Assembly (NCBI GenBank): GCA_050916045.1
Contig: CP051526.1
Location: forward strand, 448,001-512,000
Length of the DNA stretch: 64,000 bases
DNA from: Tepidisphaera sp.
Lineage (GTDB): Bacteria > Planctomycetota > Phycisphaerae > Phycisphaerales > UBA1924
Direction: 5' to 3'
Both the position numbers and the translations under genes were made by a program. Shown piece after piece: positions 40,670 through 62,706 of the stretch (position 1 is the first letter of the stretch; each line of letters begins with the position of its first letter). The notes below the pieces were generated by a model. That model was not told the DNA's origin. It saw only the letters and a program-made list of their open reading frames with translations, and ran no database searches.

Positions 40670-41578
40670 ATGGATCGTAAACGGAGACGTTCCGCCTTTA
40701 CGTTGATCGAGTTGCTGGTGGTGATTTCCATCGTCGCCCTGCTCATCAGCTTGCTGCTCCCCGCGCTGTCGAAAGCGCGAGCGGTGGCGCAGCAGGCCAA
40801 GTGCCAGATCCACGTCAAGCAGATCGTGACCGCCGCGTACCTCTACGCTCAGGACCACAAGGAGCAGTTCTGGCCCGTCTCCGATCGGCTTACCTGGCCC
40901 AACGGCCGCCGCAACTGGCCCACGCCTCCGAACCAGCGACCGGGTGACCCGCCTCCCACGGACGTGGCGTACTGGGCCCAGCTCGTCGATCGCGTCACCC
41001 GTGATCGCAAGCCGGGTTTCCTCTTCAGCTACGTGCAGAACGCCCACAAGATCGTCGAATGCCCGACGAACAAGCGGGCCGTGCCGACGACAACTGAGTA
41101 CAACAACCTCTGGGGCGGCACCACCGGTGTGGAGTTCGACTTCACGATGCTCGACGAGGTGGAAGGGTTCCGCCTTGGAAGCTCGATCCAGGTGGGCTTC
41201 CTGCCCCCCGCGTCCAACAACGCCGCGCGGATCCTGAGCACGGCGCAGGCCCAGACCCTCACGCTGCTCCCCTCGGTCCCGCTTTTCTTCGAGGAATCAA
41301 GCTTCCGGTACAACCAGCAGTTCCGCGACGGGATGTTCGGCAACGAGGACCAGGTCGCTTCCCGCCACAACCGCTCGGGACACGTGGGCTACGTCGACGG
41401 GTCGGCTTCGCTCTTCCCCGGCTGGAACGACGGCAAGGAACAAATCGTGGACCGCACGACAGAATTTGAGTGTCTGGATCTCTACGCGACGGCAGGGTCG
41501 CGGTGGGTCTCGATTTCGGACAACGACTGGCGATTCAACGTCATTCAGGGATTCGGCTGGATCAACAACCCGAAGTAA
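40670..41578 (+). CDS. Prepilin-type N-terminal cleavage/methylation protein with H-X9-DG motif (DUF1559-like)
   Basis: [50 protein letters not shown]. Confidence 0.92.
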
Positions 41579-41612
41579 CGCCGCTCGCGGCTTTCTTGAG
41601 GAAAGTGGAACG

Positions 41613-42509
<897 letters not shown>

Positions 42510-42562
42510 GCCCGACCGGTCTGCGGCCGCCGACGACCGCGGAGACCGAAACCCAAAACAGA

Positions 42563-42592
42563 AAGAGCCGAGGCTTTCGGGCCTCGGCTCTT
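42563..42592. terminator. Probable bidirectional terminator between convergent prepilin genes
   Basis: AAGAGCCGAGGC-N6-GCCTCGGCTCTT, flanked by A-rich and T-rich tracts. Confidence 0.8.
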
Positions 42593-42620
42593 GTGTTTGG
42601 ATGCTTGATGGTCCGCCGGA

Positions 42621-43670
42621 TCAGTTCGTCATCGTGCTGCCCGGGCGGTAGGTCCAGGTGGCGGTGCCGGCGTAGTTCGACCAGCGGGTCATGTCGCGGA
42701 GTTCATCGATCTTGATGGACTCGACGTGGTTATCCATCATCGCGATGGTGACCTGCTCGAAGTACCGGGCATCCACCATGCCCCAGTCGCGAGCGACCGA
42801 GCGAGCGTTCCACTTGTCGGAAGCGACCCAGGCCGGGCCGGAGGCGGACCCGCCGCCACGCTGGCCGTTGGGGAACGCCCGGGGCGGGAGAACCTCGAAA
42901 TAGCCGGGGACCTTCTCGGTGGTTGCGCTGTCGGGCGGGGGGTTCGCGCCCCAGCCGGTTGCGCCCATGTTGCCTGCGACGTTGCCGATGTCGGCACCGC
43001 GCGAGCTGCAGAACAGCATGAGGCGGTTGGGCCGGGTCACCTCGTCGATGCGGCCGACGAAGAACTTGCCACCCAGGTTCAGCGGCATCGGGCCCGCCGA
43101 GGTCGCCGTCGCGTTGGGGTACGCACCCCGAAGATAATTGCCGCCGACGTACACCGAGTTCATGCCGAAGGTCGGATGGATGCCCATCGCCATCTGGTAC
43201 GAGTTGTTGTTGTCGTAGTTGTTGAAGCGGGAGTCGCTCTGGCCGTCGGGGGACTTCGTCCGCTCGTGGAACTTGGCGAACGTCGCGGGGTCGATCTGCA
43301 TCGCCTTGCCGAGGATGCCGTATTGCGCCAGACGCCACGTCCAGATCTTCGTCAGGCCGCCGCCCATGATCTTGCCCCGGTCCGTCTCATCGCCGGGAAG
43401 CGTGCGGACCTGGATGTTCTGGTACCCGTTGGCCGAGTGGGCCGCCCAGGCCCACGGGATGTACGAGGGCATGAACGACTCTTTGTTGCTCGCCGTGTAC
43501 AGCGCGTTCGCGGTGCCGTACTCGCGGGCGGCCGCTTTCTCGCGGAGCTGGCGGGCCAGCATGCGCGCCTTCGACAGCGCCGGGAGGAGAAGGCCGATCA
43601 GGAGCGCGATGATCGCGATCACGACCAACAGTTCGATCAAGGTAAAGGCGCGGCGGTCGGACATCTTCAT
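42621..43670 (-). CDS. Prepilin-type N-terminal cleavage/methylation protein
   Basis: [33 protein letters not shown]; degenerate Y-X9-DN motif near the C-terminus. Confidence 0.9.
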
Positions 43671-57183: not shown

Positions 57184-57789
57184 ATGCCCGCAGCAGCCGT
57201 TTCCTATCAGCGCACCCGTGAGATGACCATCGATGAGCTTTTGCTCGAGAACCGGGTCATCTTCATGATCGGTGAGATCAACCAGGCCTCCGCCGCCCGC
57301 GTCATGATGCAGATGCTCTACCTCGAGAACCAGAAGCGAGGCCAGGAGATCAACTTCTACATCAACTCCCCCGGAGGGGCCGTCGACGACACCCTCGCCA
57401 TCTACGACACCATGCGGTTCATCACCAGCCCCGTCGCCACCTACTGCATGGGGCGTGCCTATTCGGGGGGGTCCGTCCTCCTCGCCGCCGGCACCAAGGG
57501 CAAGCGATACATCCTGCCGCACGCCAAGGTCATGATCCACCAGCCCTACGGCGGCGTCGGCGGCCAGGCCGAAGACATCCGCATCCAGGCCGAGCAGATC
57601 ATCAAGACCAAAGCCGAGCTCAACCGCATCCTCTCCCGCCACACCGGCAAGGATGCGGAGGTCATCAAACGCGACAGCGAACGCGACCGGTACTTCACCG
57701 CCGAGGAAGCGGTGGCCTACGGCCTCGCCGACGAGGTTCTGAAGGAGCCGCCGCTTGAATCCTCCGGCGTGCTCGCCGGCGTTCGCTGA
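57184..57789 (+). CDS. clpP: ATP-dependent Clp protease proteolytic subunit (first copy)
   Basis: YINSPGG, AIYDTM, AYSGGS (Ser), MIHQP (His) and ERDRY (Asp). Confidence 0.95.
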   Translation: MPAAAVSYQRTREMTIDELLLENRVIFMIGEINQASAARVMMQMLYLENQKRGQEINFYINSPGGAVDDTLAIYDTMRFITSPVATYCMGRAYSGGSVLLAAGTKGKRYILPHAKVMIHQPYGGVGGQAEDIRIQAEQIIKTKAELNRILSRHTGKDAEVIKRDSERDRYFTAEEAVAYGLADEVLKEPPLESSGVLAGVR

Positions 57790-57851
57790 TCCCCGTCTGA
57801 CCGGTCCCGCGTCCTTTCTTTCCCCCACGAACAACACCCACGAGGTTCCCC

Positions 57852-58478
57852 ATGTCTGGATATCTGGTTCCGATCGTCATCGAGAAGGGCGCCAAGGGCG
57901 AACGCGCCTACGACATCTACTCCCGCCTCCTCAAAGACCGAATCATCTTTCTCGGCGCCCCCATCGGCGACGAGGTCGCGAGCGTCGTCATCGCCCAGCT
58001 TCTCTTCCTCGCCAACGAGGACTCCAAGAACGACATCCACCTCTACATCAACTCCCCCGGCGGAAGCGTCACCGCTGGCATGGGCATCATCGACACGATG
58101 AACTTCATCGACTGCGACGTCTCCACGTACATCATCGGGCAAGCCGCCAGCATGGGTTCGCTCATCGCCACCTGCGGCGCCAAGGGCAAGCGGTACGCTC
58201 TCCCCAACGCTCGCAACCTCATGCACCAGCCGCTCCTCTCGGGCGTCATGGAAGGCCAGGCGACCGACCTTGAGATCGAAGCCCGCGAGATGCTCCGCCT
58301 CCGCGAACGCCTCTACCGCATCTACGCCGAAGCCACCGGCAAGTCGACGGACCAGATCGCCCGCGACTGCGACCGCAACAAGTGGCTCGACGACGGCGAA
58401 ATGCTCGAGTACGGCCTGATCGACAAGGTCCTCCAGCGCATGCCGGTGGTCGCCAAGCCCCACAAGGCTGAGGACTGA
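57852..58478 (+). CDS. clpP: ATP-dependent Clp protease proteolytic subunit (second copy)
   Basis: GERAYDIYSRLLKDRIIFL, YINSPGG, AASMGS and MHQP; DRNKW in place of the usual xRDxF/W. Confidence 0.95.
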   Translation: MSGYLVPIVIEKGAKGERAYDIYSRLLKDRIIFLGAPIGDEVASVVIAQLLFLANEDSKNDIHLYINSPGGSVTAGMGIIDTMNFIDCDVSTYIIGQAASMGSLIATCGAKGKRYALPNARNLMHQPLLSGVMEGQATDLEIEAREMLRLRERLYRIYAEATGKSTDQIARDCDRNKWLDDGEMLEYGLIDKVLQRMPVVAKPHKAED

Positions 58479-58572
58479 AAAAGCCCCCTCCCGGAGGCAG
58501 GGGTTTGGGGGGGGTTTTGTCTTCGCATTTTCACACCCACGATGAGACCGCAGAGGTCGATTCGTGGGTTTT
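58479..58572. terminator. Hairpins between convergent clpP and the MauE-pilin gene
   Basis: AAAAGCCCCCTCC...GGGGGGGGTTTT and ACCCACGA...TCGTGGGT-TTT. Confidence 0.6.
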
Positions 58573-58596
58573 CTCATAGCCGGTTGCTATCAACCT

Positions 58597-59832
58597 TTAG
58601 AAATCTCTTCCCGCGAGTCCGTGGCGTGTCGAGAGGACCGGAAACGGGATCGCGCCGTAGGGGCGACTGACCGGCAGGTCGGCGGGCGGGTTGGCGATGT
58701 CGATGAGGCCTGCGGACCCGTCGGCACGCCCGGCGGTGTAAAGGGCGATGCTGTCATCGCCCTCTTTATTGAGGTACTTTCCGCTGCCCGCGTCCCACGT
58801 GAGCCCTTTGTGCGAGGGGAACCGCACATCTCCGAGGGTCGAACCTCGGAGAAGGGTGTCGTCAATCGGCGCGTCGTCGGTGTCCCAGTACTGCGCGGAG
58901 GCCGAGCACCCGTGGGCAATCCGAAACTGAGTTGTAAAGACGCCCTCCGGGTATTCATTGAGTGAGTCATTCTCACGGGTACCGTCGTCGGTCACGGATC
59001 GCTTGCTGTTCAGGTACGCAGGGTGGAGAAGAGAGAGCCAAAGCCGCGAGTTGGCGCGAAAGTACGAAAGTCCACCGCCCGGGCTTGAGAGTTCGTCATA
59101 CCCGTTGATGACGAGCGGCCCCATTGGATTACCGGGTGTCCCGACGTACGGGAAGAAGTCTTTCGACGAAGAGGCGTAAGTGTTGATCGCGATGACAAGT
59201 TGCTGATGGGTGGCGAGGCTTACCGTGACCTTGGCCTGCTTTCGAGATTTCGAGAGTGCGGGCAGCGAGATCGCGATAATCAGCGCGATGACGCCGATCA
59301 CAAGAAGCATTTCGATGAGGGTAAACCCCGCGCGGACGCCGTTCCCGTGACCACGCGATACCGACCCTGGTGCCCCGGACGAGCCGAACCGAACACCGCA
59401 CCGGATGAGAAGCCAGCCGTTGACAATCAGCAGAGCGCCATTGCGGACTAATCCGCTCGTGGTATCCTCGCGGGGCCCCATCGACGATTTCACGAGCCCG
59501 AAGCATCCGCACGGACGCGGGGAGGGAGACAAACTGAGATAGATCAGTGTCAGGGAAAAGACTATGAGCGTTGCGAATGACAGGGCGAGAGTTCGGCGCC
59601 CACCCACGCCCGCGATCATTACCCCGCCGAGCAAAGCCTCGCCTATCACGACCATGGAAGCGACGCTCTTGGCGATTGGAAGATCGACGGGAAAAAGATG
59701 GTCAAGCACGGATGCGAATTGCGACACGGTATAGGCCTTGGTGACCGCGGCGCACAGAAACACGCCCCCGAGAAAAACCCAAAGTACGATGGTCAAAGAG
59801 TCCCGACGATCTGCTGTCGCTTGGATGTTCAT
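58597..59832 (-). CDS. MauE/DoxX-like membrane domain fused to a prepilin-type (type II secretion pseudopilin-like) domain
   Basis: Four TM helices with FL.AAVTK, GEALLG, PCGCFG and RN..L; then RAG-FTLIEMLLVIGVIALIIAISLPALSKSR (G169/F170); C-terminal ADGS...STRHGLAGRDF. Confidence 0.85.
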   Translation of the reverse strand: MNIQATADRRDSLTIVLWVFLGGVFLCAAVTKAYTVSQFASVLDHLFPVDLPIAKSVASMVVIGEALLGGVMIAGVGGRRTLALSFATLIVFSLTLIYLSLSPSPRPCGCFGLVKSSMGPREDTTSGLVRNGALLIVNGWLLIRCGVRFGSSGAPGSVSRGHGNGVRAGFTLIEMLLVIGVIALIIAISLPALSKSRKQAKVTVSLATHQQLVIAINTYASSSKDFFPYVGTPGNPMGPLVINGYDELSSPGGGLSYFRANSRLWLSLLHPAYLNSKRSVTDDGTRENDSLNEYPEGVFTTQFRIAHGCSASAQYWDTDDAPIDDTLLRGSTLGDVRFPSHKGLTWDAGSGKYLNKEGDDSIALYTAGRADGSAGLIDIANPPADLPVSRPYGAIPFPVLSTRHGLAGRDF

Positions 59833-59850
59833 GGCTCAGGACTCCGTCTT

Positions 59851-60696
59851 TCAGTACTCCAACGCGGTGCCGACTCTCGCAACGTTGTAGTCGTACACAC
59901 CGTCGAGCACCCAAAGCGATCGGCGCGGATCCCAGTAGAACGAGTGAACACGGGGATGCACGGCACCATCGCCAAACGTCGTAACCAGCCCGATCTCGGC
60001 CCAGACTACACGGCGATCACGCTTGAGAACGTCGCGCCAACTAGAAGGCGCGTTCCACCAGTTGCGTGTCGTTCCGCTGCTCTTTCCCTGCCAGATCTCG
60101 GCGGGCATGACCCCCGAGACAAAAGGCCTGGATTGGCTGGGGCTCGTCACCACGCCCGCGACCACAGCAAGCCCTTCGGGAGAATCCGCGATCTTGACAG
60201 GCTTCGCCGACCCATTCTCGACGAGTAGGCCGGTTGAAAAGAACTCCTTGAACATCGTCTCGACATCGCGACCTGGAGGGACGGGGGACTTGAAGATCGC
60301 AGAATAATCTTGTTCAATTTGCCAATTCGATTGCAGATCGTCGTAGGCACGAAGTATGTACCCCGACGCCCTCCTCCACTGAACGTACTTGTCGAAATCC
60401 TGAGTGACAAACCGCAGCGTGTAAAAGCGCGAAAATTCCTTCAGCAAAGCATCGATCGACCCCGAACCGTCGGGCAATCGACTCGGTAGCGTCGCGGTAC
60501 TCTTGTAGTAGTCGTAAAACGACGCCTCATCAAACTCAGTGCTCGATCGCATCGTGATCGCTCGGAATCTCTCCTGCGATTCTCGAACAATCTCAGCAGT
60601 ATCTCGCGGGTCGCGGGGAAGCCACCAAGACCGCGTCAGAATCGCGGTCACGGTCACTACACACAAAGAGACAACGCCGACTTGCCACGCTCGCAT
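59851..60696 (-). CDS. Hypothetical protein with an N-terminal membrane anchor (281 aa)
   Basis: GGAGG RBS; 13 nt after the upstream stop and 18 nt before the next start; one hydrophobic N-terminal helix. Confidence 0.75.
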   Translation of the reverse strand: MRAWQVGVVSLCVVTVTAILTRSWWLPRDPRDTAEIVRESQERFRAITMRSSTEFDEASFYDYYKSTATLPSRLPDGSGSIDALLKEFSRFYTLRFVTQDFDKYVQWRRASGYILRAYDDLQSNWQIEQDYSAIFKSPVPPGRDVETMFKEFFSTGLLVENGSAKPVKIADSPEGLAVVAGVVTSPSQSRPFVSGVMPAEIWQGKSSGTTRNWWNAPSSWRDVLKRDRRVVWAEIGLVTTFGDGAVHPRVHSFYWDPRRSLWVLDGVYDYNVARVGTALEY

Positions 60697-60709
60697 GGGG
60701 GCCTCCCGT

Positions 60710-60958
60710 CTATTTGCAGAGATCGGTGGGAGTGTCCTTGCAGTTTTCAGTCGTCTTGCAGCTGCAAGTCCACGTCGTTCCGGTTCTAGGCTTGCAGCAA
60801 CAAGCATCCTCGCTTGTCGCGCACTGTACCGAGCCCGTGCAGCCGTTCGTGCACGTGCGAGTAACCAGCACAGCACTGGCGATCGAAGCAAACGCCGTCA
60901 TCGCCGCAACGACCGCCACCGCACGACCGATCCGATCCAAACGAGTGGTTTTCGACAT
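60710..60958 (-). CDS. Secreted cysteine-rich small protein (82 aa; 53-aa predicted mature peptide with 10 Cys)
   Basis: AAGGAG RBS 6 nt before the ATG; Sec-type signal ending ASA; mature VLVTRTCTNGCTGSVQCATSEDACCCKPRTGTTWTCSCKTTENCKDTPTDLCK. Confidence 0.85.
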   Translation of the reverse strand: MSKTTRLDRIGRAVAVVAAMTAFASIASAVLVTRTCTNGCTGSVQCATSEDACCCKPRTGTTWTCSCKTTENCKDTPTDLCK

Positions 60959-60978
60959 TAGTGTCTCCTTGGTTCGCC

Positions 60979-61010
60979 ACCTTACCCCGGGGGGGGGGGT
61001 CGCATGTCAA
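60979..61010 (-). promoter_or_regulatory. Sigma70 promoter with a poly-C tract in the spacer
   Basis: Minus strand TTGACA-tgcga-C11-gggg-TAAGGT; the spacer is 20 nt. Confidence 0.7.
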
Positions 61011-61203
61011 GCAGATTCTCGATTTTGGTCCTCTGCAGACACGATTCTCTCTGCGAGTGACATCGCCGCGTCGGAACGTGGTTCGTGGCATCGAAGTCAT
61101 CCGAAGCTGCTGAGTTCGATGCCAAGAGCACTTCGTGTACCGGAAACCCCTCTGCCTCGAAGACTCGGCACCTCATCCGCCGGGGGGCGGTGGAGGCGTT
61201 GAT

Positions 61204-62706
61204 TCACTTCGCCGGCGTGATCTTGAGCACGCGGTCCGGCTCGTTGAGCACGACGTAGATGTCGCCGTTCGGGCCTTCGGTCACGTCGCGCACGCGGCCC
61301 ATCCCGTGGATGATCTCCTCGCGCTCGACGAAGACGCCCTTGCCGCCTTCGACCTTGACCCGCACGCGGTCGACGTTCGCGCCGGCCAAGCCGCCCGCGA
61401 AGAGGTCGCCCTTCCACTTGGGGAACGCGCTGCCGTTCGAAAGCCCCAAGCCGCACGCCGCGATCGACGGCAGCCAGCGGTACGTCGGCATGATGATGTT
61501 CGCCGGCAAGGACTGACCCTCGCTCCGCGACTCGGGCACATCCGCCCACGGAGTCCGCAGGGGCGTGTCCTGGTAGTTGATGCCAAAGGTCACGATCGGC
61601 CAGCCGTAGTTGCCGCCCTTCTGGATCAGGTTGAGCTCATCGCCGCCGCGCGGGCCGTGCTCGGTGTCCCAGAGGTTGCCCGCCGCGTCAAAGTGCAAGC
61701 CCTGCGGGTTGCGGTGGCCGTACGACCAGATGGCCGGGTACGCATCCTTCTCATTCACGAAGGGGTTGTCCGCGGGGATCGTGCCGTCGTCCTTGACGCG
61801 GAAGATCTTGCCGTTGGGACGCTTGAGGTCCTGAGCAAGCTGGCCGTTGCCGCGCTCGCCGATGCCGAAGTACAGGATGCTCGAGTCCTTGGGGTCAAAC
61901 GCGATCTTGACGCCAAAGTGCAGGCCCGAACCGACGTAGTGCTCGGGTTTGGCCTGGAAGATGTCCTGCTGATCGGTCCAGACGACCTTGTCACCCTCGG
62001 CTTTGAGCTTGCCGCGCACAACCCGGGTCATGTTGCGGTTGCGCTGGGTGGGGCTGGGGTCGGCGTAGGCGAGGTAGATCCAGCCGTTCTTGGCGAAGTC
62101 CGGGTGGGTCTCGACGTCCATCATGCCGCCCTGGCCGGCTTCGACGGACTCGGGCACGCCGTCGATATTGATCAGCTTGCCCCCGCGGAAAAGCAGAACC
62201 TCGCCGCTCCGGTTGGTCACGAGCATGCCCTCGAGGGGCCCGGTGATGAACGCGCACGACCACGGCGTGCGGAGCTTGACCGTCGAGTCCTTGGAGTTCT
62301 CGACGACCGTTTCGACCTTGTACTTCTCGTACTTGGAGGAGTACACGCCCTCGACGGCTTTGGGGCTTCCCAGCCGGCTGCGGCGCTCGTCACGCTGAAG
62401 TTCGCGGATGTGGACGACCAGGGACCAGATCTGCTCGTTCTTGAACTTGGACCCGAACGCGTGCTTGTCCTTGCCCGCTTTGATCGCGTCAAAGAACGGC
62501 CGGTCGAGGGTCTGGTCGAACTTGTCGTCGGTCAGGAGGGTCTTGGCGTCCTTGGACCCTTCGCCGCGACCCCCGTGGCAACTGGCGCAGTCGTTGGTCC
62601 ACATCGACGAAGCGGATTGTCCCTGCGCCGCCGCGGTTCCGGCGAGAGCAAGGAGGAGGGCGAGACGGATCGCAAGACGGTTGGCGAGCGGCGAGGTGTT
62701 AGGCAT
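61204..62706 (-). CDS. PQQ-dependent sugar (glucose/sorbosone-type) dehydrogenase with an N-terminal cytochrome c domain
   Basis: Signal peptide, CASCH haem motif, GQGGMMDV..HPDF..NGWIY, HFG, GERG, SYGHRNPQG, EHGPRGGDELN and GRVRDV. Confidence 0.93.
   Translation of the reverse strand: MPNTSPLANRLAIRLALLLALAGTAAAQGQSASSMWTNDCASCHGGRGEGSKDAKTLLTDDKFDQTLDRPFFDAIKAGKDKHAFGSKFKNEQIWSLVVHIRELQRDERRSRLGSPKAVEGVYSSKYEKYKVETVVENSKDSTVKLRTPWSCAFITGPLEGMLVTNRSGEVLLFRGGKLINIDGVPESVEAGQGGMMDVETHPDFAKNGWIYLAYADPSPTQRNRNMTRVVRGKLKAEGDKVVWTDQQDIFQAKPEHYVGSGLHFGVKIAFDPKDSSILYFGIGERGNGQLAQDLKRPNGKIFRVKDDGTIPADNPFVNEKDAYPAIWSYGHRNPQGLHFDAAGNLWDTEHGPRGGDELNLIQKGGNYGWPIVTFGINYQDTPLRTPWADVPESRSEGQSLPANIIMPTYRWLPSIAACGLGLSNGSAFPKWKGDLFAGGLAGANVDRVRVKVEGGKGVFVEREEIIHGMGRVRDVTEGPNGDIYVVLNEPDRVLKITPAK

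Follow-up and report, generated by a model that had tools for sequence, protein, structure and literature searches.

A mobile gene cassette of Phycisphaerales joining a cysteine-rich miniprotein, a MauE domain, and a type IV pilin subfamily, with a candidate phase-variable promoter

Introduction

Why would a bacterium fuse a membrane protein of the MauE family to a type IV pilin and encode the fusion in one tight cluster with a small cysteine-rich secreted protein? This question is raised by three genes, here called A, B, and C, near the end of a 64,000-nucleotide stretch of the genome of Tepidisphaera sp. (contig CP051526.1, positions 448,001 to 512,000; "the window" hereafter denotes this whole stretch at its full length). 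A encodes the cysteine-rich peptide, B an anchored protein, and C the fusion. An initial annotation had proposed that the three genes form a dedicated module in which MauE oxidatively folds the peptide and pilin machinery displays or exports it. Comparison with related loci showed that A, B, MauE, and the pilin constitute a conserved gene system, the members of which travel together in dozens of loci. As for its function, the cassette may be a switchable module: a miniprotein would be folded and then transferred, via the anchored partner and the dedicated pilin, to the type IV filament machinery, which would display or release it. We give this reading about an even chance.

Results

Linkage of the cassette genes

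The profile of family B was built from 143 sequences and gave 62 outside matches under an E value of 1e-20, 61 of which were covered by 60 fetched regions from 37 genomes; 56 of these regions were scored, and four were excluded for a short flank. A peptide was called when a signal-bearing open reading frame (ORF) of 55–135 aa with at least seven mature Cys lay directly before B. This rule returned 14 ORFs in the whole genome, two of them the cassette peptides, and about 0.001 would be expected per 650-nt interval. In the 56 B-loci, a pilin of one subfamily was found within 1.5 kb in 53, MauE in 40, and a secreted peptide with 8–14 Cys in 40. Peptide and MauE were both present in 36 loci, both missing in 12, and discordant in eight. 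The pilin was fused to MauE in 16 of the 53 loci, separate and downstream in 15, divergent in 15, upstream in five, and convergent in two, the last two classes including ORF-boundary artefacts.

A profile of the pilin head was then used to collect further loci. It was built from B-linked pilins, and up to 12 candidates were scored per genome; matches were obtained in 91 of 301 order genomes, including 78 of the 90 that belong to the family, and in three of 301 genomes of the phylum, all three in the family. The B profile matched 51 of the 301 order genomes, some of them weakly, and three of 401 across the phylum; family B as a whole comprised 385 clusters at 50% identity. For the pilin-loci, the best 40 unfetched loci among 150 listed of the 375 matches were taken, leaving out three with a B match and three at contig edges. 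A peptide was present in 26 (the rule gave 24, one of which was spurious, and three were added by inspection) and MauE in 19. The partner gene was B-like in 16 and of an unrelated family, D, in 12, never both (28 of 40 in total); the B-like genes were found by an iterated B profile that gave no match on reversed ORFs and may have drifted. Thus, the constant core is this pilin, usually with a Cys-rich miniprotein and an anchored periplasmic partner, and MauE is present in about half to two thirds of the loci.

These results bear out the proposal that the three genes are linked as a system. The MauE-pilin fusion is just one arrangement among several, with split and divergent forms equally common, so the pilin subfamily rather than the fusion is the constant part. 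The 281-aa protein, which has the pilin nearby in 53 of the 56 B-loci, can be replaced by D. The low GC content and recent insertion of the cassette, described below, would suit mere chance neighbours on a foreign island; however, searching by B finds this set again in 37 genomes, and searching by the pilin finds it in more, at protein identities of about 25–30%, and these linkage counts refute an explanation that we regard as hardly credible. Another proposal is that of two hitch-hiking modules, in which the pilin and its partner form an adhesin or tip and A with MauE makes a periplasmic or released miniprotein, under a shared promoter and without contact with the filament. B and the pilin do persist without A and MauE in at least nine loci. 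Nevertheless, peptides flank the pilin also where MauE is absent, in five gene orders, and MauE-pilin fusions accompany B in some cassettes and D in others. We consider two separate modules improbable. As a side observation, three MauE-less loci (L154, L160, and L161) carry a cytoplasmic gene, presumably ferredoxin-like, instead of a secreted peptide ahead of B.

The cassette in the window

The features of the cassette are listed in Table 1. As annotated initially, the genes are co-oriented, with intergenic gaps of 13 and 18 nt and a GGAG-type Shine-Dalgarno motif ahead of all three starts. The greater AT content relative to the flanks was also confirmed: the GC content of the cassette is 59.1% against 65.9% for the genome, an equally low value being found in only 13 of 1512 tiles of 2.7 kb, and GC3 is 0.67–0.71 in the cassette genes against 0.88–0.90 in the flanking clpP and dehydrogenase genes. 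A 346-aa overlapping reading of B with a TTG start was set aside, as the homologues begin at the ATG at 60696, and so were plus-strand ORFs overlapping the cassette. Of the hairpins noted downstream, one was called between clpP and the cassette end; the seven terminator-like calls of the region do not clearly exceed those in shuffled sequences (4.8, sd 2.2). The neighbours of C are A, B, clpP, and the sorbosone dehydrogenase gene, and mau structural genes are indeed missing beside the cassette. A genome-wide search for the methylamine dehydrogenase small subunit gave no match, but its control was not detected either, so that this negative carries no weight. Profile searches of the window cassette gave no RiPP/bacteriocin-type tailoring enzyme and no ABC or PCAT exporter, PADLOC anti-phage defence profiles matched none of the three cassette proteins, and an Rfam search of window positions 57500–62500 gave no match.

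Table 1 Positions of the cassette features in the window and of related loci in the genome (prefix C1).
Feature	Position	Strand	Description
Gene A	60710..60958	-	82 aa, 10 Cys, secreted miniprotein
Gene B	59851..60696	-	281 aa, N-terminal membrane anchor and periplasmic domain
Gene C (MauE and pilin fusion)	58597..59832	-	411 aa
MauE domain of gene C	59404..59796	-	Residues 13-143; C108-G109-C110-F-G site (59511-59503)
Type IV pilin domain of gene C	58597..59325	-	From F170, E at +5, after basic linker ending G169
Promoter-like element	60979..61010	-	-35 TTGACA 61010-61005; 20-nt spacer; -10 TAAGGT 60984-60979; putative function
C11 homopolymer in promoter spacer	60989..60999	-	Candidate slipped-strand phase-variation switch
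Hairpin between clpP and cassette end	58483..58514	both	Possible shared terminator; supported by a consensus match alone, with no excess over chance in the region
Low-GC insert between clpP and glucose/sorbosone dehydrogenase gene	58479..61203	.	Absent at the site in congeners G1019 and G1020
Decayed cassette (L003)	C1:3365184-3366600		Peptide and most of B deleted; stop in B remnant; MauE-pilin intact
Second intact cassette (L004, L209)	C1:2040250-2043013		D type; fusion after 11-Cys peptide and 374-aa protein unrelated to B
Stand-alone MauE (L001)	C1:3088979-3090127		

Two elements adjoin the cassette. The clpP genes at window positions 57184–58478 form an ordinary tandem pair. A palindromic element of about 55 nt lies just outside the cassette (61143–61201), with at least five further copies in the genome and copies in relatives; we take it to be REP- or MITE-like.

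MauE domain and processing of the fusion

Gene C matched the Pfam model MauE (PF07291) with 67.2 bits against a cut-off of 27, and its MauE domain has the C108-G109-C110-F-G site and the conserved K32 and E65. The CXC motif was present in 41 of 43 cassette MauE ORFs. In the accessible part of a recent report, two tested MauEs replace DsbB in E. coli by means of a periplasmic CXC between helices 3 and 4 (bioRxiv 10.64898/2026.03.05.709764). The assignment of MauE as the oxidative folder is therefore supported for the family, as a DsbB-like generator of disulfides. We expect that the cassette MauE likewise makes the five disulfides of A, directly or via a carrier, and this step is probable.

The pilin part begins with a GFxxxE prepilin motif (TIGR02532, 22.6 bits against a cut-off of 16.3, residues 167–189). 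Its F and E were invariant in 50 pilins, and in the fusions the motif is internal rather than N-terminal. In each of the 17 fused linkers, the last residue ahead of F/Y-x-x-x-E is G (10) or A (7); 15 of the linkers carry a net positive charge. Prepilin peptidase cuts on the cytoplasmic side of the membrane; given a four-helix MauE, the linker after helix 4 would be cytoplasmic as well. Since the fusion keeps both the MauE CGC site and the prepilin cleavage site, gene C is probably a polyprotein that is cut by prepilin peptidase, a view that agrees with how freely fused and split forms replace one another. In all likelihood, cleavage would occur between G169 and F170, MauE serving as an oversized leader and a normal pilin being freed. 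The genome encodes a prepilin peptidase and six secretins; one secretin domain (C1:2306939-2307436) lies within a reading frame that spans 3978 aa and greatly exceeds those of the remaining five.

The genome of the window, a single contig of 4.08 Mb, is 95.6% complete. DsbB, VKOR, and Thioredoxin_4 gave no match in it, with positive controls detected and other thioredoxin families not searched. Since neither DsbB nor VKOR was found, the stand-alone MauE, whose neighbour is presumably a rhodanese-like membrane protein, is likely the housekeeping disulfide generator.

The pilin subfamily

The predicted structure of the pilin domain (pLDDT 93.4) is a long helix with a globular head. Its best structural match was Thermus PilA4 (6xxd) at a modest Z of 6.2 (rmsd 3.6, 122 residues), and the top 18 rows were all pilins or pseudopilins; Foldseek gave nothing at E 0.001. 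The head is that of an undescribed subfamily ending in GxxGRD. The three MauE-pilin fusions of this genome, that of gene C and two others (C1:3366416 and C1:2041434), were the sole full-length matches among 55 pilin-like matches. Three other pilin-like genes in the window, at about 40679–43661 (genome 488679, 489613, and 491227), matched the N-terminal part of the profile only.

Peptide A

Peptide A has a hydrophobic signal at about residues 10–30, by which it would reach the periplasm via Sec, and a Cys spacing of 3-5-6-0-0-9-1-5-7. Among 43 A peptides, the Cys count was even in 38 (ten Cys in 27), CC occurred in 42 and CCC in 28, and the median identity was 25%. A thus looks like a disulfide scaffold with variable loops. 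The family had no Pfam match and no PDB match by profile sequence search, A gave no atlas match at 0.9, and against the pilin profile the hydrophobic helices alone aligned (probability 10.6). B has no conserved Cys columns, and 37 of the 50 pilins have fewer than two Cys; since these two partners do not have conserved Cys, A is the obvious and likely client of MauE. For the same reason, B as a substitute for DsbA was ruled out.

Another role for A would be that of a redox or metal shuttle, either a DsbA stand-in between MauE and periplasmic proteins or a metallothionein-like binder. The missing DsbB, VKOR, and Thioredoxin_4 matches leave room for such a carrier, but B and the pilin offer no conserved Cys pair as its substrate. 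In addition, the high divergence and the even, scaffold-like Cys pattern of A do not suit it, and a housekeeping carrier would be out of place in a dispensable insert with a phase-variable promoter. We consider the shuttle quite improbable.

Compared with its nearest copy, L189, A has a dN/dS of 0.45 (0.38 in the mature part), and B, MauE, and the pilin have 0.13–0.18, values that come from one pair only. A is therefore under purifying selection yet changes faster than the other cassette genes.

Anchored partners B and D

The AlphaFold2 model of B (pLDDT 95.8) consists of an anchor helix and a domain with weak NTF2/SnoaL-like similarity. The best VIA-align match had a Z of 5.5 (rmsd 3.7, 105 residues; top rows mostly NTF2-like), which is below the reliable level of the tool; the atlas lead toward NTF2/SnoaL-like proteins was 0.82, with none at 0.9, and Foldseek gave nothing at E 0.001. 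No Pfam family occurred in more than one of 143 members, and there was no PDB sequence match. None of 31 pattern matches in viral contigs was related to B. Longer fused forms of B were not found among 8000 candidates of 600–2000 aa, which is weak evidence, and the predicted complex of B (28-281) with the pilin head scored 0.01, a value that speaks neither for nor against contact. Family D, which is unrelated to B and replaces it in some cassettes, has about 380 aa, a signal, and a C-terminal anchor; seven tested members had no Pfam match.

The faster evolution of A (0.38–0.45 against 0.13–0.18) and the position of B directly behind A in most loci are also what an antagonism cassette would show, in which A is an antimicrobial or anti-predator peptide, B or D confers immunity, and the pilin brings A to its target on contact. 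The multi-copy, patchy, and swapped distribution of the cassettes, like that of polymorphic toxin loci, points the same way. On the other hand, four loci that form a supported clade, and several others, retain B and the pilin although A is missing, which orphan immunity genes could explain, and A pairs with two unrelated partner families. Overall, antagonism is unlikely.

Mobility and copy number

At the site of the window cassette, congener G1019 has a gap of about 77 nt between clpP and the dehydrogenase gene with flanks 96–98% identical, and congener G1020 one of about 118 nt; here, the gap holds 2.7 kb. The window cassette is an insertion. The reverse case was also found, G1019 holding a related cassette where the site in this genome is empty (flanks 96% and 90%). 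L189 has 62–69% protein identity to the window cassette and adjoins a different gene. At the site of the C1:3366416 cassette, locus L190 has flanks that are 95.6% identical but a fusion gene that is only 67% identical, which indicates allele replacement. Within the genus, the number of pilin-head copies ranged from 0 to 20 in five genomes; G1017 has 20, several of them clustered, and G1020 has none. Taken together, the flanks stay fixed while the cassettes between them come, go, and are exchanged. Tail to tail with the second intact cassette are genes that we take to encode a GspG-like pilin and a secretion ATPase-like protein.

A repeat in the promoter

Upstream of A, a script found TTGACA and TAAGGT with C11 in the 20-nt spacer between them. 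A single upstream promoter had been annotated; the hexamers agree with it, a scan for spacers of 16–18 nt gave none because the spacer here is 20 nt, and the homopolymer in the spacer had been missed. The genome has 102 G/C runs of at least 8 nt, of which just two are placed between a -35-like and a -10-like hexamer. These two head the two intact cassettes; the tract of the D-type cassette is G16, the longest G/C run in the genome. This pattern was defined after the cassette loci had been seen, and the comparison was with the genome at large rather than with other low-GC islands. The location of C11 between -35 and -10 and the restriction of such promoters to cassettes suggest phase variation.

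Of 58 loci, 21 had a repeat (G/C of at least 8 nt or (GA)n) in the 630 nt ahead of B; the corresponding counts were 5 for 268 flank windows and 94 for 6482 genome tiles. Repeats occurred in 19 of 41 loci with a peptide and 2 of 17 without. A repeat stood between the hexamers in 26 of 100 fetched loci, with B and with D, at spacers of 13–26 nt; about half of the repeat-free promoter calls have 16–18-nt spacers, the script calls being noisy. Probably, the homopolymer slips in length and thereby raises or lowers expression of the operon in some of the cells; the 20-nt spacer seen here would be a low state. In two loci (L141 and L176), (GA)n of 16 and 48 nt replaces the homopolymer upstream of the peptide. 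In two divergent loci (L147 and L179), promoter-like elements of opposite orientation overlap and share a single homopolymer, with equal spacers (18/18 and 20/20), so that one slip could switch both directions.

Discussion

The steps above lead up to the last one of the module that we favour: the pilin would join a type IV filament whose machinery is encoded elsewhere, B or D may act as a chaperone or loading platform, and the folded miniprotein could be displayed or released as a variable recognition tip. This delivery step falls a little short of an even chance. That pilin machinery displays or exports the peptide, as proposed initially, remains an inference. Several observations weigh against the favoured module. 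Twelve of the 56 B-loci have neither peptide nor MauE, and the co-variation of the two is unconfirmed on the tree, with just 2–4 independent pairs on supported branches; a Fisher p of 4e-6 for it takes no account of kinship and is given no weight. By the rule, nine of the 40 pilin-loci have a peptide without MauE and four have MauE without a peptide, so that neither link is obligatory. No promoter repeat was found in 37 of 58 loci. MauE normally acts through a thioredoxin-fold carrier, and the cassette has none. The fourth helix of MauE falls below the hydropathy threshold, its topology resting on the published four-helix model, and in L131, where the 10-Cys peptide next to it is intact, the fused MauE-like domain lacks the CXC loop.

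The combination in the cassette and the families A, B, and D have not been described previously in the literature searched, from which most subscription papers were outside coverage and in which no MauE, Cys-rich peptide, and pilin cassette was found; the chemistry of each part is known. With the MauE pathway as presented in the accessible part of its description (PF07291; bioRxiv 10.64898/2026.03.05.709764), the cassette shares a four-helix MauE, CXC(FG), conserved Lys and Glu, and disulfide-rich secreted clients. It differs from that pathway and from the mau cluster in that MauE is fused to or beside a pilin, has a dedicated small client and no thioredoxin-fold partner, and occurs in up to several cassette copies besides the stand-alone MauE of the genome. 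Candidate clusters of Streptomyces detected by decRiPPter combine mauE with precursors having at least eight Cys (PMC7794033) and thus also place MauE beside a Cys-rich small precursor outside any mau cluster; the accessible text of that report mentions no pilin, B/D family, or promoter repeat.

Type IV pili carry tips of minor pilins and adhesins. The Kil/Tad pilus of Myxococcus, as far as the accessible part of its report goes, has interchangeable minor-pilin tips (PMC12075869), and the cassettes resemble both in that a genome has more than one pilin module to choose from, with which a single filament machine could be customised. By analogy, the cassette may work like these variable pilus tips. 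In contrast to the Kil/Tad tip, there is one pilin per cassette, with a type IVa-like GFxxxE leader rather than an Flp/Tad one, a disulfide miniprotein and an oxidase stand in place of large adhesin domains, and the modules are mobile single-site insertions. For the promoter, the closest likeness is to Neisseria fetA and porA, for which the accessible text describes transcriptional phase variation by poly-C/poly-G between -35 and -10 that alters their spacing, ahead of surface-related genes (PMC5320596). Here, the hosts are free-living Phycisphaerales, G, C, or (GA)n tracts occur at many separate loci, and the likeness is one of sequence.

Finally, DUF1559/SBP_bac_10 and Verru_Chthon proteins are likewise multi-copy prepilin-type proteins of PVC bacteria with a late DG motif, and we take the late DG motif of the cassette pilins to resemble H-X9-DG. 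However, PF07596 (DUF1559/SBP_bac_10) and TIGR04294 (H-X9-DG) matched none of the 50 cassette pilins at E 0.01, and the Verru_Chthon models (TIGR02596-02600) aligned with the N-terminal helix only, far below the cut-off of 70 bits (best window score 21.3).

The dozens of pilin-like proteins that Planctomycetota encode have no clear purpose (55 matches in this genome), and one subfamily of them is now tied to the putative handling of a folded miniprotein. MauE, as a general disulfide generator, gains a candidate dedicated client, the A peptides constitute a new and diverse family of apparent disulfide scaffolds, and gene C is a candidate example of an enzyme domain that doubles as a prepilin leader and is cleaved off. 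Repeat promoters in free-living bacteria suggest strong outside selection on a surface structure, for example by phage or grazers. More tentatively, Phycisphaerales might maintain a large library of disulfide miniproteins as plug-in cassettes, each with its own oxidase and pilin adaptor; prepilin peptidase would free the pilin from the oxidase, the type IV filament would deliver or display the miniprotein, and slipping promoters would pick at random the cassettes to be shown. If true, type IV filaments would gain a new cargo route, and the many pilin-like genes of Phycisphaerales a first functional handle.

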